DNA of 13,256 bases from a virus: the UHGV virus genome UHGV-0086716, one strand, 5' to 3'. Position numbers and translations under genes: made by a program. Numbering within the stretch: the first letter of the stretch is position 1; every line of letters starts with the position of its first letter. Of the stretch, positions 1 to 12,902 are shown in pieces. Below the pieces are notes generated by a model. That model was not told where the DNA came from. It saw nothing but the letters and a program-made list of their open reading frames with translations, and did not search any database.

Positions 1-708
1 GCCTATCTTGAAGTCCGTCGTAACCGGCTTGGTGAACCCATTGCGCTTCGTCCGGCGCTGGCGAAATACACGCGGCGGGGCAGTGACCTTGATACGTACT
101 GGTACCTCAGTGATGACGGCTCTGAATACGCATTCCGGAAGGGGGCTGTGTGTCATGTGCTTAACCCCGATATCAACCAGGAAATCTACGGGATGCCGGA
201 ATATATCGGTGGCCTGCTTTCGGTGAATCTGTCGAACTCGGCGGATACGTTCCGCAAGCTCTACTATGACAACGGCTCACATGCCGGGTGCATTGTCTAT
301 GTTGGTGCCGCCCAGGCAAACGCTGAAAGCGTGGAGGCGGTAAAGAAAACGCTCACGGAATCCCGTGGCAAAGGTGCGTTCCGCAATATCCTTCTGCACG
401 CGCCAGGTGGTGGCAAGGATGGCGTGCAAATCCTGCCGTTCCAGCAAATCACCGCGAAGGATGAATTCCTGAACATCAAGGGGAGTGCACGCGACGATAT
501 CCTTGCTGCCCACCGTGTACCGCCTCAGCTGATGGGGGCGATGCCTGACGGTAATGCCGCGTTCGGTGACGTTGAGAAAGCGGCGAGGGTGTTTTTCATC
601 AACGAGCTGCAACCTGTCATGGAGGCCATGAAGCATGTCAATGAATGGCTTGGTGTTGAGGTGATGCGCTTTAATCCCTATGCGCTGCTTCAGGATGACG
701 CCAGCTGA
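1..708 (+). CDS. Phage portal protein (gpQ-like), C-terminal part, 5'-truncated by window edge
   Basis: Frame 1 is open from base 1 to TGA at 706-708. Protein-like translation; position and orientation (last late gene, pointing at the cos-side region) match P2 Q. Family assignment is by context, not by verified motif. Confidence 0.65.
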   Translation, partial: AYLEVRRNRLGEPIALRPALAKYTRRGSDLDTYWYLSDDGSEYAFRKGAVCHVLNPDINQEIYGMPEYIGGLLSVNLSNSADTFRKLYYDNGSHAGCIVYVGAAQANAESVEAVKKTLTESRGKGAFRNILLHAPGGGKDGVQILPFQQITAKDEFLNIKGSARDDILAAHRVPPQLMGAMPDGNAAFGDVEKAARVFFINELQPVMEAMKHVNEWLGVEVMRFNPYALLQDDAS

Positions 709-1213: not shown

Positions 1214-1543
1214 TCATTTCTGCTCTCCCTTGTGTTGTGCGTTCTCCCTGATTATGTCATTGCATAAATCCACGCACTCATTGCAGATCCAAACAGATGG
1301 TCCGGCAATAATCTGTCTGACATCGTACTGGCTTTTGTTGCAGAAGCTGCAATAAAGCGTCTTCCCGACTGAAGTTGGTGTTTTGCTGGGCTCTCCACAC
1401 ACCAGTCGTTCGATGTCTCTTTCGCGCCGAAGAGCGATCTGGCTGCATACAGCTATTTTTTGCAGGTTGATGTTTTCTTTTTTCGCCAGTGCTTCAATTT
1501 GATCAATCAGTCGCTGCGCTTTTTCTCTGTCAATATATTGCAT
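1214..1543 (-). CDS. Small protein (109 aa) with C-terminal ClpX-type C4 zinc-binding domain
   Basis: ATG at 1543 preceded by GGAG with 8-nt spacer (the track's GTG at 1552 is less likely). C-terminal [38 protein letters not shown] closely matches the N-terminal zinc-binding domain of ClpX as I recall it (C-x2-C-x19-C-x2-C). N-terminal ~60 aa looks helical. Confidence 0.75.
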
Positions 1544-1557
1544 TGCGCCCACTCCGA

Positions 1558-2107: not shown

Positions 2108-2524
2108 TCATGGTCTTTGTTGCCTGCGTGATTGCCTGTTGGCGGCCGAATGCACATAGCGGGCAATTGCCGCTTTTCGGTTAACGACGGCCAGCGTTCT
2201 TGCCAGCTCTTCGTTGAGTTTTCTGGTCTGTTTTTCGTGGTATGCCTGCATGATTTTTCCTACGGGAGTCAGTGGTTCAGGCTCTGATATGGCGCGACGA
2301 GGGCGCACGGCAACGATGAATGCGCTTCTGTCGGTGTTGATTCTTGCAGCCAGGATGTCGGTCATGACGGTATCTGTGTTGCGATCGTGGTTTGCGATCG
2401 TGATCTCCAGTTCGTCGCCTGGCTGTGGTCGAACACTGACGCCGCTCAGCATCAGTGCCGGAATGCGTCCACTCATGATGGCGCTGAAATCATGGCGCTG
2501 GAGTACGCAATGGAATCGTGTCAT
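2108..2524 (-). CDS. Hypothetical protein (138 aa), first gene after A
   Basis: ATG at 2524 overlaps the A stop (ATGA) and has GGAGGTG upstream inside the A 3' end. Segment ELEITIANHD...DILAARI weakly resembles the start of DinI (unverified). Confidence 0.6.
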   Translation of the reverse strand: MTRFHCVLQRHDFSAIMSGRIPALMLSGVSVRPQPGDELEITIANHDRNTDTVMTDILAARINTDRSAFIVAVRPRRAISEPEPLTPVGKIMQAYHEKQTRKLNEELARTLAVVNRKAAIARYVHSAANRQSRRQQRP

Positions 2525-5010
2525 GGGTTCACCTCCGGTTGATCTGCTGCCACCAGGCTTCGTGATTTCTCATCCCAGTGCACAATCCGCCCGTCAGGCA
2601 GGCGAACGCGTGCACCTCTGTGTACGGAAAGTGCTGCGCCACTGTGTGGCTCCTCGCCCGTCGTGCTCAGTGCCGACTTGATCACGGTGGTGGTGACGTC
2701 AGCCAGCGGCAATGCTGCACGCACATCTATGACGTCATCGGGCGTGGTGGGGCCGCCGGTTTTCACGGTTTTTGTGTCAGATGGCGCATCTTTCAGCTGC
2801 CTGGTGAGTTGTTTTCGCTCTGTGGGGGTCAGTGACCTTAACCACTCACCCAAATCACCTCCCGGGACGACCAGTTTTTGTTCTTTCCTGGTTTCCGGTG
2901 GTGGGGTTTTACCCTCTCCGGTGTCTGTTTTTTCATCATGGGGACAGTTATTGCCACGAGTCCAAGGGGCGACAAAGTCGCCCTGAAGGTCAAAACCATT
3001 TTCGTGGGCGCTGTCTTTCACTTCTGGTTTACGCCTTACCAGCTTCCACTTGTCCAGGTGGGTGCATACCCTGGAGGATTCCCCTTTGAGCGGTGACCAG
3101 ATGCCGTAAATCTGTGCGCGCTGTTCGCCGTAATCATTAGGCTCATCTGCGATGTCATAGGCGGTACGAATCAGATAATCTTTGCGCGGAACCAGCACGC
3201 CCCCCTGCTTCTCGGTGTAGGTGGCAAAACACCCGGCGTCAGCGGCAGCCAGTACCGCATCCATGGCATCGTCTTCCAGTCGTCCGGGGCCCTGTGGATT
3301 GCGGGCCATCTGGCAGGCAAGGCGGCGCAGCTCGCGCCATACCTGTCGGGACGGAATACCAAAGAACTGAAACTGTCGGACACGGTGCAGGCGTGCCCAG
3401 CCTATGGCGTGCTCCACGCTCTCAGCCATTGGTTTTCCTGATTCGTCGTCAATGCGTGGCTTACCTGTTTTCGGGTCGATGCCATCCACGGCGCGGCTGT
3501 CCAGGTTTTTCCCGATATAGGTGGCGATGTAGCTGGTTGGCGTGCCTTTTGAGCCGTCAATGTATTCCACCTTAAAGCGTGGTGTTATGTCGTCGCCCAG
3601 TTCCTGACGGTCTTCACGGATGGCGATGTCCCGGGCTGCGTTCTCTATAGCCTTTGCGTTATCCGGATGGGTGAAGACCAGCATGTGCCAGTGCACGGTG
3701 CCGTCATGGTGTGGCTCCACCGTGCGGACGCCATACCAGCGCAGGCCGTCGCGGTTCAGCTTTTTGCGGAGGGCGGCAAAGAACTTGTTGACCAGGTAAT
3801 CACTGGAATCGCGAATGGTGCTTCCGTCCCACTTAGGGTTCAGATAACCGCGCTCCGTCGTGGCGTGAAACCTTGATGGTGCGGTGATGGTCACAAATAA
3901 CACTGTGTCGCCACGGGCTTCTGCCAGCAGTTCCATACCCTTCGTGGTCGCCATCATCTCGGCCCTGCGATTGACCGGGTTACTGATGCCTGCGTAATAG
4001 ACGGATTCAAGGTCAATAGTGAAGCCGTCCTCGTTTTCCAGTTCGAAACGTTTCAGGAAGTCGCGGGTTTTCTCGCGTTGTGCGCGGAACTCGCCCAGTG
4101 CGTCCTTACTCAGGTAGGGCGATGTTTTTCTGGAAACCAGACCGGCAGCACGCAACTGTTCTTCCCGCCATTCGCGGCGCAACCGCCAGAGTTTGTGGTA
4201 CCACCAGTCTGCGCAGTTCAGGCGAAGGATGGCGCCTGGCAGTCGTTCAACATCCGGTTCCGTTCTCCGGTTCTTGTCTGTTCTCAGCGCTTCGTAATGC
4301 GGTGGTATGGTGTGCAGGTGTAGCGCCATGCGGGCCAGTACCGGATATGCCTTCAGCATTACATCCACTGTCATCTCACCATCGCTGGCCCCGAAACCGT
4401 CGCAAAGTTTTTCGAAGGTTCTGCTGAACAGTATGGCCGTCATGGCTGCCAGCATTCGTGTCCGGCGTTCATCGAGCTGCGGCAGGTAAAGCAGGTTATC
4501 CAGATTGTCGCGCCCGGCAAGGGAACGGTAAGCCGGAGTCAGCCAGCGGCTGTTAGTGCGCTCCAGTCGTTTGAATATTTCGCGCAGTGTTTCGCTCGCG
4601 TAGCGGTCTGCCTGCCAGTTTTCCTCCCCTTTACGGCGTTCTGACTCCTGTTTTTTGCGCAGGATACTGAGTTTTTTAATAAGCGGATCCCGCAGATAAG
4701 GCGGTAACAGGCGCAGCGTGTCGTAGGCTTCGCTTACTGCATCACGTGCCCGTGGGGCAATCGCGGCGATTACCCGGTCCCGTGCTTCCTGTGCGTCCAG
4801 GTGTTTGTTAATCAGGCGCCCAAGCCTGGTCGCGGCGAAGTCTGCATCACTCAGTTCGCCGTCGGGCATCGCGCGACGGAGTGCATCCACCCGGTAGGCG
4901 TCCAGCCATGAACGAAGGGCTGAGGTGGGGGCGGGTGTTTCCCTTCTCCTCTCCTCTTGCCCTATGGCATGGCGTGGTTGTTGCCAGTCCCGGATGTACT
5001 CAGCTGCCAC
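2521..5010 (-). CDS. A: Phage replication initiation protein, gene A family (rolling-circle endonuclease), 829 aa
   Basis: Size matches P2 gpA-type proteins. HUH-type motif (GTVHWHMLVF) and tandem-tyrosine region (YIATYIGKN). GTG start at 5010 with GGAG upstream, 6 nt after the upstream gene's stop. Confidence 0.88.
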   Translation of the reverse strand: MAAEYIRDWQQPRHAIGQEERRRETPAPTSALRSWLDAYRVDALRRAMPDGELSDADFAATRLGRLINKHLDAQEARDRVIAAIAPRARDAVSEAYDTLRLLPPYLRDPLIKKLSILRKKQESERRKGEENWQADRYASETLREIFKRLERTNSRWLTPAYRSLAGRDNLDNLLYLPQLDERRTRMLAAMTAILFSRTFEKLCDGFGASDGEMTVDVMLKAYPVLARMALHLHTIPPHYEALRTDKNRRTEPDVERLPGAILRLNCADWWYHKLWRLRREWREEQLRAAGLVSRKTSPYLSKDALGEFRAQREKTRDFLKRFELENEDGFTIDLESVYYAGISNPVNRRAEMMATTKGMELLAEARGDTVLFVTITAPSRFHATTERGYLNPKWDGSTIRDSSDYLVNKFFAALRKKLNRDGLRWYGVRTVEPHHDGTVHWHMLVFTHPDNAKAIENAARDIAIREDRQELGDDITPRFKVEYIDGSKGTPTSYIATYIGKNLDSRAVDGIDPKTGKPRIDDESGKPMAESVEHAIGWARLHRVRQFQFFGIPSRQVWRELRRLACQMARNPQGPGRLEDDAMDAVLAAADAGCFATYTEKQGGVLVPRKDYLIRTAYDIADEPNDYGEQRAQIYGIWSPLKGESSRVCTHLDKWKLVRRKPEVKDSAHENGFDLQGDFVAPWTRGNNCPHDEKTDTGEGKTPPPETRKEQKLVVPGGDLGEWLRSLTPTERKQLTRQLKDAPSDTKTVKTGGPTTPDDVIDVRAALPLADVTTTVIKSALSTTGEEPHSGAALSVHRGARVRLPDGRIVHWDEKSRSLVAADQPEVNP

Positions 5011-5016
5011 AGCGAT

Positions 5017-5391
5017 TTACTCCGCGATGCTGTTCAGTGCGCCGAGGCAAACAGCGGTCAGGCGCTGGATTTCCTGCGCGGTGGCTTCAGGGCTTGCCCG
5101 GCGGTGCGTAATGCGAAGACTGTCGGAAATGACTTCAATGAGCACCGACGACGGGCACTGACAGATGCAAACAACACTTGCAATGGTGTCTTCAATGCGG
5201 GAGAGCGTGTAATTGCCCTGGTTGCAGGCAAGCAGGTAGCGGCCGTCAATGACAGTCTGACCATCGGGAAGTTGTGGTGCTGTGGGTTGCAACTTCCTGT
5301 ACATCTCGAAGCGATGGGCAACGCGATCTCGTGTACCGGCGTCGCTTTCGGTCTGAATCAGGTAAGTTACAAAATCATCGATGAGAATCAT
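5017..5391 (-). CDS. Hypothetical protein (124 aa) immediately upstream of A
   Basis: ATG at 5391 with AGGAGG 9 nt upstream; protein-like composition; same strand as operon. Confidence 0.65.
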   Translation of the reverse strand: MILIDDFVTYLIQTESDAGTRDRVAHRFEMYRKLQPTAPQLPDGQTVIDGRYLLACNQGNYTLSRIEDTIASVVCICQCPSSVLIEVISDSLRITHRRASPEATAQEIQRLTAVCLGALNSIAE

Positions 5392-5463
5392 TGTGGCAAT
5401 CCTCCTGTTGCAGATGTGCGGAAGCCTCCCGCGTACAGATACGGGATAGCTTCCGGATGTGGT

Positions 5464-5685
5464 TTATCGGTGCTGGTTGATGAGGCTTTGCAGTTCTGCC
5501 AGATCTTCGGCGAGATAGCTGAAGACAGCAGCGCAGTAACGGTTTGATAGCGCGTGCGTGCGCTCATGCAGCATGTTGATGTGCATGATTTGCGCGACGC
5601 GTGTTGCGCGGAAAAGTCTGCGGTTGATTTCGCTGCGTATGTGAATACGCTCAGCGCGGGCGCGCTGTTGCTTGCGGTTTGCCAT
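5464..5685 (-). CDS. Small basic hypothetical protein (73 aa)
   Basis: ATG at 5685 with AGAGG upstream; arginine-rich N-terminus suggests nucleic-acid binding. Confidence 0.5.
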   Translation of the reverse strand: MANRKQQRARAERIHIRSEINRRLFRATRVAQIMHINMLHERTHALSNRYCAAVFSYLAEDLAELQSLINQHR

Positions 5686-5728
5686 GGTGTGGCCTCTGCG
5701 TTAGTAAGTTCTGAAAACTCACCATCCA

Positions 5729-5917
5729 GAGTTGAGAATCTCGGGGTGGCGAGACGTACGGGGTTCTCAACACCGGCTAACACAGGACCCGGCCCGACCG
5801 AAGTCGGCCCCGTACGCCCCGCCATAATTCTGACGCGAAAAAGACGTGGCGATACAGTACGCACAAAAAAACCGCTGGCGCGGCTGTGCGCTGTGTTAGT
5901 CAGCGGGTTGAGAATCC
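5729..5917. repeat. Structured non-coding island with GTTGAGAA(T/C)C repeats and nested perfect stems
   Basis: GTTGAGAATC at 5731-5740 and 5907-5916 (direct); inverse copy GTTCTCAAC at 5763-5771. Nested TCTCG/CGAGA (5739-5743 / 5750-5754). Perfect 9-bp stem CGTACGGGG / CCCCGTACG (5755-5763 / 5808-5816) enclosing CCGAC-cgaa-GTCGG (5794-5807). No ATG-initiated ORF with an RBS in this stretch. Confidence 0.45.
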
Positions 5918-5982
5918 CGGCACCCGTTTTATGAGGTGCAGCGGAAATGTAACCTGACTCAACGAGCGCTGGCAAGCGGTTT

Positions 5983-6010
5983 TTGTGTTGCGTGCTGAAG
6001 TATGTATAAT
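5983..6010 (+). promoter_or_regulatory. Sigma70-type promoter for the plus-strand embedded gene
   Basis: -35 TTGTGT (5983-5988), 16-bp spacer, -10 TATAAT (6005-6010) preceded by TG; about 60 nt upstream of the ATG at 6072. Confidence 0.5.
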
Positions 6011-6071
6011 CGCGGCGCAAAAATGGAATGCGCCGAAGGATAGCGGCGTTTATTAACAATGGAGGTTGTTT

Positions 6072-6539
6072 ATGCCTGTTGCTATGGAGCAAGCAGACAA
6101 GAAGATTTTTTTCCATCTGTGGTACAGCTACTGGCTGGAAGAGATGGTTTTCATACTCAGCAATAAAGCCGCTGCCGTGTTGCGCGCCGGGGCACTGATT
6201 GCTGCGGTATTCTCCTTTCTTCTCGTAGGTTTTCCCGTCCTGATGAGCCTTTGCGGGCTGGCGTTTTTTGTTTTTTCCTGGTTTTGCAGCAAGTGTGAAT
6301 TCGTCGCCGAACTGGCGTGCTGGCAGAAACAGAGCTACCTTCGTCTGATTACGCAAAGGGATTCCATGAGCACTGAACGCCTCATTGAGCGCATTCTGTA
6401 TCTGGAAGAAACGAACAGCGCATTCATGAAGGCGTTTGTCAGGCCTGCAAAAAACAAAGCGAGCGCATCTGTTGGTCTGTCTGCCAGCGAGCATTTGCGT
6501 TACTCCGAAAGGTTAATCTGCTGGTTGTGCGGCTTCTGA
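6072..6539 (+). CDS. Embedded plus-strand gene: predicted membrane protein (155 aa) with cytoplasmic C-terminal domain
   Basis: ATG at 6072 with GGAGG 6 nt upstream and own promoter. Two hydrophobic helices (AAAVLRAGALIAAVFSFLLVGFPVLM, SLCGLAFFVFSWF); codon usage looks enteric. Opposite strand to the surrounding operon; 3' end overlaps the DUF4406-like gene by 27 nt. Confidence 0.6.
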   Translation: MPVAMEQADKKIFFHLWYSYWLEEMVFILSNKAAAVLRAGALIAAVFSFLLVGFPVLMSLCGLAFFVFSWFCSKCEFVAELACWQKQSYLRLITQRDSMSTERLIERILYLEETNSAFMKAFVRPAKNKASASVGLSASEHLRYSERLICWLCGF

Positions 6540-6863
6540 CCGGCGAAGCAGCTGCGCGACGGTTTCACCGCCTGCCCGGGCAGACGGGTATGACACTGGC
6601 ATATTCAGCTTGAGTGCCATTGCGTACTCCGCCCGTGCGCCATCGGACTCTTCCCATCCATCCAGTAAGTAAATGACGTCGGCACACATGAGCATCGGAA
6701 TACAAATACTCATGTACTGCTGCTGGCTTAATCCGTCCGGCAACGTGGCAGGGTTCAGCACAACGTGCACGGCTGCTGCGAGCCTCGCCGCCGCCATGGA
6801 AAACGCCGTTCTGTTGTGGTCTTTGTATCCGGTCATTGGACCGGCGATATAAATCACTGCCAT
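6513..6863 (-). CDS. DUF4406-like / nucleoside 2-deoxyribosyltransferase-like protein (116 aa)
   Basis: N-terminal MAVIYIAGPMTG motif; GGGAGG 6 nt upstream of ATG at 6863. Confidence 0.7.
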   Translation of the reverse strand: MAVIYIAGPMTGYKDHNRTAFSMAAARLAAAVHVVLNPATLPDGLSQQQYMSICIPMLMCADVIYLLDGWEESDGARAEYAMALKLNMPVSYPSARAGGETVAQLLRRSEAAQPAD

Positions 6864-7072
6864 GCTTTACCTCCCGTGTTGCGTGTTGCTGTCAGCACGC
6901 GCACTTCTTCCACGTTCGTGGCGCAGAAGTGCGAACCGTTGATAAGGCGGATGTGATACATCTCTGGATTGCGTGAGTCCTGGCGCGTCATTCCTGGGTC
7001 AATCAGGCTTTCGTCGACTTCATACTGACGGCCGTTGGCTGTGAATCTGATAACGGTTGACTCCTGGATCAT
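6854..7072 (-). CDS. Hypothetical protein (72 aa)
   Basis: ATG at 7072 in ATGA overlap with the upstream gene's stop; same-strand operon context. Confidence 0.5.
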   Translation of the reverse strand: MIQESTVIRFTANGRQYEVDESLIDPGMTRQDSRNPEMYHIRLINGSHFCATNVEEVRVLTATRNTGGKAWQ

Positions 7073-7305
7073 TGCTGACCCCTTTGCCCGGCAGATTTCT
7101 CGTTGAGCTGCTTTTTAAGGGCGGCGATTTCACTTTCCTGATCCTGAATCACCCGGATTGCTTCCATGGTGATCCCCAGTGAGATCGAGGAAGATATAAC
7201 GACCTTTGGTTTTCCAACGGCAGCAGCAACTTTGGCTGTTTCCTCGTGTGCACGGGCGATGTGACGTAACCCCCGCAAAAGTGCTTTGTTTCTTTCGCTA
7301 TTCAT
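7069..7305 (-). CDS. Hypothetical protein (78 aa)
   Basis: ATG at 7305 with GGAG 7 nt upstream; helical, charged. Confidence 0.55.
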   Translation of the reverse strand: MNSERNKALLRGLRHIARAHEETAKVAAAVGKPKVVISSSISLGITMEAIRVIQDQESEIAALKKQLNEKSAGQRGQQ

Positions 7306-7394
7306 TTCCTGACTCCTGTGTTACTGATTCATCTGTTTATTCACGTACTGGCTGGGGTAAACATCACGCAGTAAGTTGCATCTCCCGTTACCGG

Positions 7395-8321
7395 TCAGCA
7401 GTCCGGACAGTAGCCACCGCCATGGCGACCGCATGGGTCGCACTGTTTCAGGGTGGCGATAACCTCCGGTGCGGGTTCGCTGGTTCTTGCGCCAACGCTT
7501 CTCGGTACCTGGATGCAGTTCATCCGGTATCCCCGATAAATGCGCCGTGTTTCCGGTGTGTCGGAATTGGAGATGGTGATGCTGGTCATGCCGCCCGTTT
7601 CCTGTGAAAGACGGTCAAGTGCCGCTCTCAGGCGAACGTGCTCGTGTTCATCGAATGGTTTTCCGTAGGCGGTGAAATTGTTCTTGCCACTGAATCGCAG
7701 GTAAGGGGGATCGCAGTACACGCAAAGCGTGTTGCCCATGCCGAACAGGTGACTGGCAGAGTTCAGCGTATCCTTAAAATCTGCGTGGATAAGCAGCGTT
7801 CGGGTGCTGTTTGCCTTGTCTGCAAATGCGCGGATTTCCCGCTCAGGGAAGTAGGGCTTGCGGTAGCAGCCGAAAGGCACGTTAAAGTCACCTTTTCCGT
7901 TCACGCGGAACAAACCGTTAAAGCTGTGTCGGTTCAGGTACAAAAACATGGCGGCCAGTCGCAGTTCACGGCGGTCGCTTATTCCCGTTCTGCTACTCAG
8001 GAAGGCATGATTCTCTGCGTTAAAGGTTTCGCGAATGATGAGATAGTCACCCCTGTTGTTGTGGTTCAGGAACAGGGTTTTCGCCTCGTCGATCAGGCTG
8101 TCGGTGTTGTCCCTGACTTGCCGGTAGAAATTGATCAGCGCACCATTGGAATCCCCCAGGATGTAGCGCTTGTAACTGGTGTTCATGAATACCGATGCGC
8201 CGCCCGCAAACGGCTCAACCAGGCAGTCTGCTTCTGGCAGATGCGCCTTCAGTGTGTTCATGATGCGGCTTTTTCCGCCCACCCATTTCAGCGGTGTGCC
8301 GGATAACAGCTCTTTGCTCAT
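7395..8321 (-). CDS. dam: DNA adenine methyltransferase (Dam-like), 308 aa, with short Cys-rich C-terminal tail
   Basis: KWVGGK, EPFAGGASVF (SAM-binding), FNVPFG, DPPY catalytic motif, NFTAY and ISNSDT all align with E. coli Dam as I recall it. AAGAGG RBS 7 nt upstream. Extra tail CDPCGRHGGGYCPDC. Confidence 0.9.
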   Translation of the reverse strand: MSKELLSGTPLKWVGGKSRIMNTLKAHLPEADCLVEPFAGGASVFMNTSYKRYILGDSNGALINFYRQVRDNTDSLIDEAKTLFLNHNNRGDYLIIRETFNAENHAFLSSRTGISDRRELRLAAMFLYLNRHSFNGLFRVNGKGDFNVPFGCYRKPYFPEREIRAFADKANSTRTLLIHADFKDTLNSASHLFGMGNTLCVYCDPPYLRFSGKNNFTAYGKPFDEHEHVRLRAALDRLSQETGGMTSITISNSDTPETRRIYRGYRMNCIQVPRSVGARTSEPAPEVIATLKQCDPCGRHGGGYCPDC

Positions 8322-8336
8322 AACGCGGCCTCTTTG

Positions 8337-8546
8337 TTATAGGTTTCGTGCGTTAATAAATCCCATGACGCCCCGTTGTTTTTGCTCAGCAGTCGCCAGC
8401 GAAAACCGATTCTTATTACCAGGTAGTCGTGGGGTTTTATGCGTGAAAAATTCCGCACGCCGTCGCGGAATAAACGCAGCGATGCGCGGGCTTTTCTTTC
8501 CACGTTCAGGGGGGGGGCAGCAACACACATTCAGGATGGCGACCAT
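8337..8546 (-). CDS. Possible small leader ORF (69 aa) containing the C9 tract; coding status doubtful
   Basis: ATG at 8546 with GAGG upstream, but the product is proline/arginine-rich and not obviously globular. The alternate frame (8318..8530) ends in an ATGA overlap with the dam start. Confidence 0.3.
   Translation of the reverse strand: MVAILNVCCCPPPERGKKSPRIAAFIPRRRAEFFTHKTPRLPGNKNRFSLATAEQKQRGVMGFINARNL
8509..8517. repeat. G9 homopolymer (C9 on the coding strand) in the leader/small ORF upstream of dam
   Basis: Nine consecutive G at 8509-8517, inside the 234-bp interval between the exonuclease stop and the dam start, within codons 10-13 of a small ORF (8337..8546, minus). Confidence 0.9.
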
Positions 8547-8555
8547 AGCTTCACC

Positions 8556-9137
8556 TCATATGCTCAGGAATGGCGTTGTGAAGCGCTGCCAGATTTCTGA
8601 CACGACCTTTGCCTGGTAAATGGCATCGCCCAGTGCAGTGTGAGCAATGGTCTCTTTGCCTGATCGGCCTGGCATTCTCCAGCCGGAGGACTTAGCCATG
8701 TCGATAAGCGGACGCATACAGCGCTCGTTCCAGTAACACCACGGAATACTTTTTTCTCCGGCCGTGCGCTTTATGGCGGATCTCAGGATTGGGAAGTCAA
8801 AGTATGCACCCTTGCACCATACGGTCAGTGCCTTGCCCAGGGTTTCGTCTTGCATGTTGCGCGAAATGAACGCCAGAAATTCGGTTACTGCCGCAAGTTC
8901 TGTTCCCTCTGCGTTGAGCAGGCAGGCTCTGGCCTCCACGGATTGACCGGCCCACCATATGGCGGTTGATGCATTGACGGTTCCGCCGTTGCGCTCTGAA
9001 TCCACCGGGTCGATGTATTTCTCAAACTGCTTACCCAGCTTTCCGGTGAACGGGTCGAAAAACACCGCGCCGATCGCGAATATGACTGCGTCCGGTCCGG
9101 TGCCCAGTGTTTCGGTGTCAATCATGAGATGGTTCAT
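8556..9137 (-). CDS. DEDDh-type 3'-5' exonuclease (DnaQ-like fold), 193 aa
   Basis: Exo I motif MIDTETLG near the N-terminus and Exo III-like HTALGDAIY near the C-terminus. ATG at 9137 overlaps the upstream stop (ATGA); alternative start at 9125. Confidence 0.8.
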   Translation of the reverse strand: MNHLMIDTETLGTGPDAVIFAIGAVFFDPFTGKLGKQFEKYIDPVDSERNGGTVNASTAIWWAGQSVEARACLLNAEGTELAAVTEFLAFISRNMQDETLGKALTVWCKGAYFDFPILRSAIKRTAGEKSIPWCYWNERCMRPLIDMAKSSGWRMPGRSGKETIAHTALGDAIYQAKVVSEIWQRFTTPFLSI

Positions 9138-9367
9138 TGTGCGGACCCCTTCAGTTCTGTGTTGTTCGTGAGCGTTGCAATCAGTCGTTCAATGGCTGAA
9201 CAGGTTTCCAGCGGGGAGGTGTGCTTCTCTTTCGCCGTGTTAACCAGGTCTCGCAGTAATTCGCAGATATGCGCACGTTCGGCTTTTCTTGCGGTCATGC
9301 TGATGTGTGCATGTGGCTGTTCTGGTCTGGCGGTTATTTCTCTGCTTGGTGATTCGGCAGTTCTCAT
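9134..9367 (-). CDS. Hypothetical protein (77 aa)
   Basis: Start re-called to ATG at 9367 (GGAG 7 nt upstream); the track's TTG at 9391 is less likely. Confidence 0.5.
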   Translation of the reverse strand: MRTAESPSREITARPEQPHAHISMTARKAERAHICELLRDLVNTAKEKHTSPLETCSAIERLIATLTNNTELKGSAQ

Positions 9368-10571: not shown

Positions 10572-11096
10572 TTACTGGTTGCCTCCACTGTATTGGTGTT
10601 GCTCCAGTTTTGACTTTCTTCCTGTGTAAACCCGCTTTTCATTGATGGTCTGGCAGTCTTCTTTGTTTGCCGGGGAAAACTTTCTTTTCTGTCGGTCGTA
10701 CGTCCAGTAGCTTTTCCAGTTGTGCCATTCTGGCGGCTCGCATTCTGGTAATTCGTCAGCCAGCTTGTCCCACTCTCTGGCGTTAAACCACCATACGCCA
10801 TCCGAATTTTCGTCCTCAGGGTTTGAACGGGTCTTGTGTCCAGGCATCTGATTTCGCTGAAGCGCCACGCGCAATGCAGCTTTTGTCAACCCGATATAGG
10901 CCGCCCCTTTTTCAAGTGAGCAAAGTCCGGCTACCGGGCCATCCAGTCGCAAGGTTGCCCCTTTTTTGTAGGTGCGTTTTTTCTTTTCCTCTTGGTGTTC
11001 ATCGTCGTTTGCCGCACCAACGGATTCGGTGATGTCGCTACTTCCGTGGGGTTGCTGGGTGTCAGATAACTCTTTATCGGCAATGAAGTCCCGCAT
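10572..11096 (-). CDS. Cox-like early regulator/excisionase with N- and C-terminal extensions (174 aa)
   Basis: First gene of the leftward operon, divergent from the repressor gene; AAGAGG 7 nt upstream of ATG at 11096. Central segment AAYIGLTKAALRVALQRNQMP...GVWWFNAREWDKL resembles the P2 Cox HTH core as I recall it. Confidence 0.55.
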   Translation of the reverse strand: MRDFIADKELSDTQQPHGSSDITESVGAANDDEHQEEKKKRTYKKGATLRLDGPVAGLCSLEKGAAYIGLTKAALRVALQRNQMPGHKTRSNPEDENSDGVWWFNAREWDKLADELPECEPPEWHNWKSYWTYDRQKRKFSPANKEDCQTINEKRVYTGRKSKLEQHQYSGGNQ

Positions 11097-11155: not shown

Positions 11156-11179
11156 AAAGATACTCATACGAGTATCTTT
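11156..11179. promoter_or_regulatory. Perfect 10-4-10 palindrome in the divergent switch region (candidate operator)
   Basis: AAAGATACTC-atac-GAGTATCTTT, perfect dyad, 21 nt upstream of the repressor ATG and within the 103-bp interval between the divergent starts. Confidence 0.55.
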
Positions 11180-11199
11180 TGCGAGAGGTTAATACTCAA

Positions 11200-11541
11200 A
11201 TGGTTATCTTGTCAATAGACTATGCAAAAAAGCTACGTCAAATACGCAAGGCTGAAGGGCTAACGCAAAAGGAATTTGCGGATATTACGGGGTTGTCTTT
11301 AGCTGCCATAAGGAACTATGAATCAGGGCAAAAAAGCGCCAGAGCCAAAATTGTTGAGGCGGTTCTCCAGGTTGATCGATTTGAAAAATACATGATGTGG
11401 CTAATAAAAGATAAGACAATGCCTGTTGCCGGTCAGATAGCTCCGGCTCTCTCTCTTGATGGCTCCATTCAGTCGGAGGACGATCAGGATTCAATCCCAG
11501 CCACCCAAAAATCATCCCGATCAGGCCGCAATGCTGGCTAA
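11200..11541 (+). CDS. Immunity repressor, P2 C-like (HTH), 113 aa
   Basis: Motifs YESG, FEKYMMW and GQIAPAL match P2 repressor C as I recall it; HTH (LTQKEFADITGLSLAAIRNYESG). ATG at 11200 with GAGAGG upstream preferred over the track's TTG at 11179. Immediately upstream of int, as in P2. Confidence 0.8.
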   Translation: MVILSIDYAKKLRQIRKAEGLTQKEFADITGLSLAAIRNYESGQKSARAKIVEAVLQVDRFEKYMMWLIKDKTMPVAGQIAPALSLDGSIQSEDDQDSIPATQKSSRSGRNAG

Positions 11542-11610: not shown

Positions 11611-12603
11611 ATGTCGATTAAGCAACTCAAAGACGGGCGTTATAAGGTTGATGTAAGGCCGCAAGGGGCGGAAGGAAAGCGGATCCGTAAGATTTTTACC
11701 CTGAAGTCAAAGGCACAGGAGTTTGAAAGGTATGTTTTGCAGAATTTCCACGATAAACCGTGGCAGGCCAAGCCAGCTGATCAGCGTCGGTTATCCGAAC
11801 TGATAGATGCCTGGTGGGTGCTTGATGGTCGGAATCAGCCTTACGGGGATACTTACAGGGTCAGGCTGGAAAAAATAAACCGTGAGATGAGGGACCCCCG
11901 CGCCAGTGAGATGACGCGAAAGTTTATGCTCGGGTATCGTTCAGATAAATTACAGGCCGGATTAATGCCCTCCAGTGTTAATCGTGATTTGTGCGCCTTG
12001 TCTGCAATGTTTACCGCGCTGATTGATGCGGAGGTTTTCCATAATGAAAACCCGGTGCGTGGAATACGTAAGCTCAAGGTCAGGAATACAGAAATGGCCT
12101 TTCTTTCAGATGATGAGATTGATCGGCTCCTTGAGCGACTCGAGGGTGATGCGCGTCGCGTTGCTGTTCTGTGTCTTTCCACTGGCGCAAGGTGGGGGGA
12201 AGCGGCTGGTTTGCGTGGTGAGCATATCGTTGGTAACCGCGTAATGTTCTTTAACACAAAGAATGGAAAATCCCGCGCAGTTCCTGTTTCTGATACGGTG
12301 CTTTCGTTGATAAAAACCCGAAAAACTGGGCTATTGTACCAGGCTGATTACATCCGTTTTCGGGAGATCCTTCAGGAGGTGAAGCCGGACTTGCCGAAAG
12401 GGCAGGCCACCCATGTCATGCGTCATACATTCGCTACACATTTCATGATGAATGGCGGAAATATCGTTACGCTACAACGAATCCTGGGCCATGCCACGAT
12501 TCAACAAACGATGACGTATGCGCATTTTTCGCCGGACTTTTTACAGGATGCAATCAGCTTTAATCCGCTGGCTGAAAGTGTCCATAAACTGTCCATCGAT
12601 TAG
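11611..12603 (+). CDS. int: Tyrosine integrase, P2 Int-like (330 aa)
   Basis: GGAGGGG RBS 6 nt upstream. Catalytic-region pattern LCLSTGARWGEAA, HVMRHTFATHFMMNGGNIVTLQRILGH, TMTYAHF (R...HxxR...Y). Last phage gene before host DNA. Confidence 0.92.
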   Translation: MSIKQLKDGRYKVDVRPQGAEGKRIRKIFTLKSKAQEFERYVLQNFHDKPWQAKPADQRRLSELIDAWWVLDGRNQPYGDTYRVRLEKINREMRDPRASEMTRKFMLGYRSDKLQAGLMPSSVNRDLCALSAMFTALIDAEVFHNENPVRGIRKLKVRNTEMAFLSDDEIDRLLERLEGDARRVAVLCLSTGARWGEAAGLRGEHIVGNRVMFFNTKNGKSRAVPVSDTVLSLIKTRKTGLLYQADYIRFREILQEVKPDLPKGQATHVMRHTFATHFMMNGGNIVTLQRILGHATIQQTMTYAHFSPDFLQDAISFNPLAESVHKLSID

Positions 12604-12718
12604 TTGTAACTTGTGCTTATTTGCTCCCCTTGTTTTGATTTACTCATTGAAAAATAAGCAAATCATCAAGGGGAGTAAGTAGCGTTAAACCTCCTGCGGG
12701 CGCTTTTTTTGTCTCCCT
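12604..12718. other. Prophage/host junction containing an att-like core
   Basis: GAAAAATAAGCaaatcatcAAGGGGAG (12649-12675) resembles the P2 att core as I recall it. An upstream segment (12612-12630) carries reverse-complement copies of the same sub-motifs. T7 run at 12704-12710. Confidence 0.4.
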
Positions 12719-12732
12719 TTGATACCGAACAA
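12719..12732 (+). promoter_or_regulatory. FNR-type binding site upstream of dmsA
   Basis: TTGAT-accg-AACAA matches FNR consensus TTGAT-N4-ATCAA at 9 of 10 positions, 171 bp upstream of the dmsA ATG; dmsA is a known FNR-activated anaerobic gene. Confidence 0.5.
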
Positions 12733-12902
12733 TAATTACTCCTCACTTACACGTAATACTACTTTCGAGTGAAAATCTACCTATCTCTTTGATTTTCAAA
12801 TTATTCGATGTATACAAGCCTATATAGCGATCTGCTATAGAAATAATTACACAATACGGTTTGTTACTGGAATCAATCGTGAGCAAGCTTGAGTGAGCCA
12901 TT

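Follow-up and report, generated by a model that had tools for sequence, protein, structure and literature searches.

The 13,256-nucleotide DNA of UHGV virus genome UHGV-0086716, analyzed here at its full length as the window, is the left arm of a P2-like Escherichia coli prophage (Peduoviridae, P88/Xuanwuvirus-type). Minus-strand early genes occupy about 1.2 to 11.1 kb of the window, and the only plus-strand gene within them, as an earlier sequence-only reading had claimed and as Pfam, the PGAP annotation of relatives and the map of open reading frames (ORFs) agree, is a membrane-protein gene at 6072-6539, hereafter gene X. The cassette that carries X is best explained as an autonomous moron of this prophage, and in every locus recovered (more than 45) X is oriented against the phage genes that flank it. 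We tentatively postulate that X is a lysogen-expressed exclusion or abortive-infection protein that would perturb the inner membrane on infection by a foreign phage, and that lytic transcription of the carrier phage would switch X off. Throughout, L and P numbers denote the related loci and proteins that were compared, and the coordinates of all features are collected in Table 1.

On sequence evidence, the plus-strand ORF is a genuine gene. The reading frame, the 155-amino-acid length and the GGAGG ribosome-binding site described earlier are all borne out, the GGAGG is kept in L002, L003, L005 and L006, and PGAP calls the X orthologue in E. coli prophages. The question of which strand is coding had been set beforehand as a refutation test, and the answer favours the plus frame. 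Its ratio of nonsynonymous to synonymous substitution (dN/dS, Nei-Gojobori) is 0.13-0.23 in most pairwise comparisons, as opposed to 1.3-3.3 for the codon-aligned antisense frame, and variable sites among five orthologous cassettes fall on plus-frame codon positions 3/1/2 in the numbers 39/17/13. At deep divergence, a comparison with the 30%-identical homologue of Yersinia phage vB_YenM_42.18 gives 66 bits (E 3e-19) for the plus frames and 24 bits for the minus frames. The competing proposal, in which the plus ORF is spurious and the minus-strand 368-amino-acid ORF or a part of it is the real gene, draws on the length of that frame and its being open in the direction of the operon, on its matches to PHROG 'transcriptional regulator' families, and on antisense ORFs annotated in two phages. 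These matches are confined to residues 164-293 (5616-6005), which lie outside the part opposite X and in the same place as two RNA genes, isrK and C4; the ORF has no Pfam match. Its frame and that of X are codon-aligned, the classic geometry that gives rise to long shadow ORFs, and it overlaps the bona fide derepression-protein gene out of frame. We regard the minus-strand gene as refuted, because the dN/dS values, the bit scores, the position of the PHROG matches, the frame geometry and the out-of-frame overlap all speak against it. The antisense annotations are shadows of the same kind: the Fels-2 reference annotation (L045, NC_010463, 3414-3956) calls STM2733.1, of 135 amino acids, and that of vB_YenM_42.18 (L004, 4803-5468) calls gp08, of 221 amino acids, and neither calls X.

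Some database alleles of X are frameshifted or begun at an out-of-frame upstream ATG at 6060 (P0003, P0004, P0005, P0007). The frameshifts lie at or near homopolymers, namely a T7 run at codons 12-14 (6106-6112) and two T6 runs in the second transmembrane (TM) helix (6264-6276), and might be due to sequencing error, to decay or to phase variation. The X ORF also contains a hairpin resembling a terminator (6246-6259), with T-runs after it.

The sequence-only reading had recognised no family for X, which no longer holds. The protein matches PHROG 6315, a phage protein family whose function is not annotated, with an E-value of 4.6e-29 (102 bits, residues 9-155 to positions 4-149 of the 152-position profile), and the family shows a weak similarity to SLATT proteins, described below; no Pfam match was obtained for the X protein. 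The family is small. An exhaustive HMMER scan of 1.84 billion representatives returned only 11 members, and profile searches of 5.8 billion clusters returned about 40 clusters, all of them from Enterobacterales and all named 'hypothetical'. The genera concerned are Escherichia, Salmonella, Yersinia, Pectobacterium, Brenneria, Serratia, Kosakonia, Hafnia, Edwardsiella, Providencia, Sodalis, Cedecea and Enterobacter, and the carriers are temperate phages of P2/186-like (including Fels-2), Mu-like and lambdoid type. Conserved positions in the protein include F14, Y18/Y20, L22-E23, A82, Q85, Y89, L92, S116, P125-A126 and E146.

Genomic contexts of X number at least eight, in four phage lineages. 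In E. coli, the gene is flanked by the isrK/C4 module on one side and by a DUF4406 or MarR gene on the other; in Yersinia it adjoins gpB, in Kosakonia it lies directly behind cox and in Hafnia behind cII, and in Fels-2 and Salmonella it stands between fil and a DUF5347 gene. Mu-like prophages of Salmonella and Edwardsiella carry it between the large terminase gene and upstream late genes, two Providencia lambdoid phages carry it inside leftward pL-type operons, and in L047 (OM284015, 'Elizabethkingia phage EKP1') it is found between the Q antiterminator and holin genes. X runs counter to gpA, dam, exo and its other neighbours, and in P2-like phages it is co-oriented with the repressor and the integrase. 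With random orientation, the probability of eight independent insertions all pointing the 'wrong' way would be about 0.004. The antisense placement noted earlier for this one prophage is a conserved property of the family, and our literature searches turned up no earlier description of such a rule for P2-, Mu- and lambda-type phages. In EKP1, genes for a class II holin, a lysozyme and Rz lie on the far side of the X cassette from the Q-type antiterminator gene; the Bacteroidota host stated for this phage looks doubtful because of its gene set and the otherwise strictly enterobacterial range of the family. At L049 and L050, the interval 6923-9267 agrees with the repressor-integrase defence hotspot described for K139-like phages.

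The mobile unit in the window spans about 5997-6539 (543 bp) and consists of the -10 element, the leader and the coding sequence. P88-type phages without X are similar to the window up to about 5996 and have a minus-strand gene at the site instead; similarity among X cassettes in different contexts stops exactly at the stop codon, with differing sequence from 6540 onward. Most relatives of the window prophage are without X, and the window allele is present in 12 of 5426 complete E. coli genomes, where its right-hand neighbour is either the DUF4406 gene or the MarR gene. A second allele, only 39% identical, occupies the same site behind the same -35 element in backbones that are about 91% identical where aligned. 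It is annotated at 215 or 196 amino acids, with an N-terminal extension that is probably spurious. The GC content of X is 50%, compared with 55-58% in the flanking genes. Judged by these sequence comparisons, the cassette is a discrete accessory unit that is present or absent, allelically replaced and variable in its neighbours.

The putative sigma-70-type promoter of X combines a perfect -10 hexamer with a -35 hexamer that matches TTGACA at three of six positions, and it was not listed by a consensus scan because of this -35. The pattern TTG-N19-TATAAT occurs once in the window against an expectation of 0.06 (at least one match in 12 of 200 shuffles). Across seven related loci the -35 is invariant and the -10, with its spacing unchanged, reads TATAAT or TAGAAT, also where the 39%-identical allele has been swapped in downstream, and this conservation argues that the promoter is functional. 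The earlier description as near-consensus is right in position, spacing and -10 but overstated with regard to the -35. The conserved phage backbone supplies the -35, and the -10 belongs to the cassette. A search for an operator common to the promoter of X and the Pe/Pc switch region gave one shared 8-mer (TTGTGTTG), which is about chance level. A structured leader in the window was likewise not supported, its folding energy being no better than that of shuffled sequences (z = -0.04). A 5-bp leader hairpin (6031-6035 with 6044-6048) retains its pairing in L005 despite changes on both sides, which is weak evidence. At the 3' end, the 27-nucleotide overlap with the convergent DUF4406-like gene is present as first described. 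It looks like a by-product of the recombination junction rather than a conserved design, because the same cassette adjoins the MarR gene elsewhere without an overlap and because the match to cassettes from other contexts breaks off precisely at 6540.

Structurally, X is predicted to consist of an N-terminal amphipathic helix, a TM hairpin at residues of about 34-74 and a cytoplasmic helical C-terminal domain. The AlphaFold2 model (predicted local distance difference test, pLDDT, 82; predicted template modelling score, pTM, 0.71) has helices at residues 2-51, 55-94, 101-115, 120-134 and 144-153. Hydropathy maxima fall on residues 34-74 and the C-terminal half is hydrophilic, so that hydropathy and the modelled hairpin agree with the two hydrophobic helices and soluble C-terminal domain of the sequence-only reading. 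With a turn of three residues and a distal part that is predicted to span the membrane, X would form an inner-membrane hairpin with both termini inside and almost no periplasmic loop. The C-terminal domain of about 80 residues is predicted to be helical and to face the cytoplasm; the placement of both ends and of this domain rests on flanking charges and on prediction. Searches of the Protein Data Bank (PDB) with the model retrieved generic helical hairpins only, and sequence searches of the PDB with the X protein and the family profile returned nothing usable.

Several comparisons point towards SLATT proteins. In a fold search of the viral database BFVD, SLATT proteins stand at ranks 1, 4, 8, 11 and 19, which amounts to five of the top 19. 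Among 28 family members, 10 match the NCBIfam model SLATT_4 (NF033632; best E 1.4e-5) and six match SLATT_1 (NF033634), while the Pfam version of SLATT_4 matches a single member (E 0.14; the Pfam models are PF18186 and PF18181). In a set of ten relatives, SLATT_4 matches nine (E 1.4e-5 to 0.12) and SLATT_1 six, and none of the ten matches any SLATT model when the sequences are reversed. The alignments are always colinear and pair X residues 25-108 with profile positions 26-120. A word-indexed search with the family profile, at E-values up to 10, reached no SLATT-annotated protein. The sequences suggest a family that is SLATT-like through a weak but specific similarity, and we do not file it as a member of SLATT.

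In most relatives X does not stand alone. Except in window-type and 39%-identical alleles, it is preceded by a micro-ORF of 27-58 codons with its own Shine-Dalgarno sequence, whose stop lies 3-7 nucleotides before the X start codon (16 loci measured). The encoded peptide has a conserved proline-rich core (…FHVLHKPAPPEE…, …PRKPAPSPE…, …TPPPPS…), often with an acidic tail; the motifs among L004, L007, L041, L043, L046 and L047 are HKPAPPEE, PRKPAPSPE and TPPPPS. Polyproline of this kind hints at a leader that stalls ribosomes or at a small partner peptide. X is intact in L035-L037, where the micro-ORF has decayed, and the peptide is therefore not an indispensable antidote. Upstream of the micro-ORF lies a conserved element of two mutually exclusive helices, one GCCGGR/YCCGGC and the other a variable 5-bp helix. 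A U-run usually comes next, and after it an extended -10 of the form TGnTAnnnT. In an alignment named A3 (L004 4754-4800, L007 5764-5813, L009, L026, L029, L030, L034, L038, L039, L041 and L043), pairing reaches 96.7%, compared with at most 45% in slid controls, and double-change cells number 12 against 4.6 in shuffles, with none of 500 shuffles reaching the observed value. The G-U pairs fit the plus strand. No Rfam family matches this element of the two-gene cassettes, which could act as a terminator-insulator, an attenuator or an operator. The window has neither the micro-ORF nor the helix element.

The exclusion or abortive-infection function that we postulate for X would proceed as follows. 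The putative sigma-70 promoter of X faces the opposite way to the early genes driven by Pe and the same way as the repressor and integrase genes, and X would be transcribed in the lysogen, where Pe is repressed. The protein would then reside inert in the inner membrane. Upon infection by another phage, its cytoplasmic domain may be triggered and the membrane perturbed or permeabilised, thus aborting the infection; this step is proposed by analogy with two-TM (2TM) effectors of SLATT type and with the exclusion protein SieB. When the resident prophage itself enters lytic growth, transcription of the early operon would collide with that of X and supply antisense RNA, turning X off. The carrier phage would in this way escape its own weapon, comparable to P22 sieB and its control by the sas antisense RNA.

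A number of observations weigh against this exclusion function. The -35 of the promoter is weak. There is no terminator-like site from the X stop to the convergent gene, and the ORF ends inside the DUF4406 gene. The promoter of the neighbouring isrK-like gene is probably active in lysogens as well, which means that the region is not simply silent unless induced. For the SLATT likeness, the fold matches in BFVD are not significant (E >= 0.19), the relatives reach 12-25 bits, which falls well short of the curated cut-offs (55 and 41), and a search with the window protein at E-values up to 1 yields no SLATT match. No SMODS, SLOG, TIR or reverse transcriptase (RT) gene adjoins X in more than 45 loci, where its neighbours are ordinary phage genes and the 27-58-amino-acid micro-ORF is its only partner. 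The window protein has no match in PADLOC-DB v2, and the best result among the 28 relatives is a CBASS '2TM effector' at an E-value of 0.031 in two members. Homology of X to lambda SieB was tried and rejected (hhalign probability about 1%, E 0.055, in a single comparison with the family alignment). We found no published transcript, protein or phenotype data for any member of the family; searches for literature on Fels-2 STM2733-2735 or on X expression found none, and the prophages of a Salmonella transcriptome paper are not shown to carry X.

Other functions can be envisaged for the same gene. X could be a membrane toxin that stabilises the prophage by post-segregational or addiction killing and is held in check by antisense transcription of the operon, by the neighbouring small RNAs (sRNAs) or, in relatives, by the proline-rich peptide. 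A small 2TM protein with SLATT-like features would suit this role, as would the tightly coupled upstream micro-ORF of most relatives, reminiscent of a two-gene toxin and antidote layout, the antisense arrangement, which recalls the logic of type I toxin-antitoxin systems, and the existence of frameshifted alleles. However, X remains intact, and purifying selection acts on it, in the absence of the micro-ORF (the window) or after its decay (L035-L037), no stable antisense sRNA gene is evident opposite X, and type I toxins do not resemble a protein of 155 amino acids with so large a conserved domain in the cytoplasm, so we consider a toxin fairly unlikely. Unlikely, too, is a lysogenic-conversion factor outside defence, by which X would alter host physiology to the advantage of the lysogen, for instance stress tolerance, transport, signalling or colonisation. 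Many morons encode fitness factors (PMC7067206), the moron layout and the orientation of X are suited to expression from a prophage, and no defence database is matched. Against a niche-specific host function stands the restriction of the family to temperate phages of several genera with different lifestyles. In addition, allelic replacement at 39% identity within backbones of about 91% is more typical of conflict genes, almost nothing of X is exposed to the periplasm, and the SLATT-like signal points to conflict systems.

Regulation of the phage life cycle, in which X or its transcription would aid lysogeny, hinder early transcription, read into the repressor-integrase genes in some relatives or sequester a host or phage factor, is in our judgement quite improbable. 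It would account for the co-orientation of X with C and int in all P2-like loci and for its back-to-back arrangement with the isrK/C4/derepression control module in the window. In Kosakonia- and Hafnia-type prophages, moreover, X comes right after cox/apl or cII and some 250-900 bp upstream of the repressor, which is the place of the establishment promoter in phage 186. Yet the cassette also occurs in the late region of Mu-like phages and in the Q-holin interval of a lambdoid phage, where no such logic applies. The gene is absent from most relatives of the window prophage, which excludes a core regulator, and purifying selection acts on the protein, not merely on transcription. A more far-reaching proposal, which we also doubt, takes X as a stand-alone SLATT-type effector that moves between P2-, Mu- and lambda-type phages as a sensor-less abortive module. 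Self and non-self would be told apart by gene orientation, with the lytic transcription of the carrier silencing the effector by way of antisense RNA and polymerase collision and a foreign phage meeting it armed, and in most members the micro-ORF and the helix element would serve as a trigger that senses translation or transcription.

The left neighbour of X is a minus-strand module with a predicted promoter of its own. This divergent promoter is conserved, stands back-to-back with that of X, the two -35 elements being 7 bp apart, and would drive both RNA genes of the module; transcription is predicted to begin at about 5939, exactly where an isrK-like match has its 5' end. This gene for an Hfq-binding sRNA ends in a terminator hairpin (5885-5870) followed by a U-run, as detected by a terminator scan, and is also present in L003, L021, L025 and L035. 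It is followed by a C4 antisense RNA gene, found in related loci as well, and, downstream of both RNA genes, by a gene whose orthologue PGAP names 'derepression protein'. We take the order isrK, C4 and derepression gene to be akin to the P1 immI and P4 antirepressor control modules. By sequence, the three genes look like an antirepressor control module inside a P2-like phage, and the Gifsy-1 type of module, from which IsrK is known (PMC4825925), is a further parallel. X had been described as embedded in the early operon; its antisense placement stands, but the description is too simple, as the isrK/C4/derepression module has its own predicted promoter. Going by the mapped features, X marks the border at which the early genes under Pe meet a control module with a separate promoter, and it is not in mid-operon. 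The idea of an 'Ash-family remnant', a decayed protein gene at this site, was based on matches that coincide with isrK and C4. A GenBank feature of a P88-type phage, 'similar to ash family protein', sits over the isrK and C4 RNA genes, and 'Ash family' pseudogene calls at the X site overlie them in the same way.

On the other side, the DUF4406 gene, which is kin to nucleoside 2-deoxyribosyltransferases, is the final gene of the early operon ahead of the X cassette. The minus-strand early genes further include a MarR-type gene, a 124-amino-acid ORF and a 3'-5' exonuclease gene. A ParE-like gene is located in the early operon with dam on one side and the exonuclease on the other, and no obvious antitoxin partner was noted for it. 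Just past the integrase gene, near the prophage-host junction, the enterobacterial sRNA STnc130 is strongly matched; the host DNA flanking the prophage of a related strain is dmsA.

Table 1 Features of the window and of related loci. Positions refer to the window unless a locus is named.
Feature	Position	Strand	Basis or remark
Portal gene fragment	148-708	+	Start of window
ORF with ClpX-type C4 zinc finger	1214-1552	-	Near early-region end
gpA replication endonuclease	2521-5010	-	
368-amino-acid ORF, not a gene	5388-6494	-	Antisense shadow of X (6072-6494), isrK/C4 stretch and overlap with derepression gene
Derepression-protein gene, 73 amino acids	5464-5685	-	Pfam PF25738, E 1.7e-6; phrog_3688, E 9e-39
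C4 antisense RNA gene (P1 c4 / P4 CI type)	5742-5829	-	Rfam RF01695, 77.8 bits against gathering score 45, E 3.4e-14
isrK-like Hfq-binding sRNA gene	5865-5939	-	Rfam RF01394, 62.3 bits against gathering score 50, E 1.3e-11
Divergent promoter, TTGCCA-18-TACATT	5946-5975	-	Promoter scan; hexamers conserved in 7 loci
Putative sigma-70-type promoter of X	5983-6010	+	-35 TTGTGT 5983-5988, 16-nt spacer, -10 TATAAT 6005-6010
5' leader of X	6011-6071	+	About 55 nt if start near 6017
Shine-Dalgarno GGAGG of X	6061-6065	+	Read directly from sequence; 6 nt 5' of ATG
X coding sequence, stop included	6072-6539	+	ORF list; ATG 6072, stop 6537-6539, 155 amino acids
Tail-to-tail overlap of X and DUF4406 gene, 27 nt	6513-6539		Coordinates
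DUF4406 gene, convergent with X	6513-6863	-	Pfam PF14359, E 3e-33; phrog_355, E 1.7e-39
dam	7395-8321	-	
ParE-like toxin domain gene	8318-8530	-	Pfam, E 8.5e-18
cox	10572-11096	-	
Helix-turn-helix repressor	11179-11541	+	
Integrase	11611-12603	+	Host DNA beyond
STnc130 match	12678-12812	-	122 bits against gathering score 55
39%-identical X allele	L048 6571-7218; L021 and L023 5983-6447		
Micro-ORF	L007 5875-5958; L004 4867-4986; L041 about 5913-5990; L043 5812-5988; L046 3342-3458; L047 3338-3484		

Compared with known systems, X has the attributes of classical morons as defined by Hendrix, such as HK97 gp15, lambda bor and lom, and P2 old, tin and fun: a discrete insertion amid conserved genes, a promoter of its own (predicted for X), a GC content below that of the flanks, and presence or absence among close relatives. 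In contrast to these, no terminator of its own was found for X, and strict placement on the opposite strand is not a general property of morons. The orientation rule, the SLATT-like signal and the micro-ORF partner are likewise absent from the description of PHROG 6315. The known defence hotspot of P2 adjoins cos (PMC9122126), whereas X is situated inside the early region; the cos hotspot is therefore not the sole site of candidate conflict genes in P2-like phages. Our assignments also imply errors in reference annotations, namely Fels-2 STM2733.1, vB_YenM_42.18 gp08 and the 'Ash family' pseudogene calls over isrK and C4.

Several anti-phage systems have SLATT proteins as their membrane effectors (10.64898/2026.04.29.721553; PMC9122126). 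Their 2TM effectors, in CBASS-like, SLOG, TIR and DRT10/DRT3 systems, share with the predicted X structure a two-TM hairpin flanked by cytoplasmic helices. They differ in that X occurs alone or with a proline-rich peptide of 27-58 amino acids, with no nucleotide-generating enzyme or RT, and lies inside phage operons, not in defence islands or hotspots. X would extend the SLATT effector class to a stand-alone, phage-borne form, which would be unusual for a protein of SLATT type.

The closest functional parallel is SieB (superinfection exclusion B) of phages lambda and P22, a prophage-expressed abortive system under antisense RNA control (PMC10461980, PMC12197685). SieB of P22 halts macromolecular synthesis of superinfecting P22-like phages, not of P22 (PMC10461980), which escapes through the sas antisense RNA (PMC12197685). 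SieB (PF14163) resembles X, as predicted, in its small size and inner-membrane location, with TM helices at the N-terminus and a helical part in the cytoplasm. Lambda sieB (34482-35036, plus strand) lies antisense within the minus-strand pL operon, and the X cassette takes up a sieB-like position in two Providencia lambdoid phages. X differs in having no conserved internal Esc-like start, and no match to the SieB Pfam model was obtained in the X protein or in family members. An antisense-embedded, prophage-expressed membrane exclusion gene is thus of a kind already known, represented here by an uncharacterised family with no detectable homology to SieB. If the exclusion function that we postulate is true, X adds a candidate of 155 amino acids to the small set of single-membrane-protein exclusion or abortive genes of prophages. 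The opposite-strand rule in four lineages suggests, in concrete terms, how a prophage may be spared by its own weapon; P22 sieB/sas is the only worked example of this so far.

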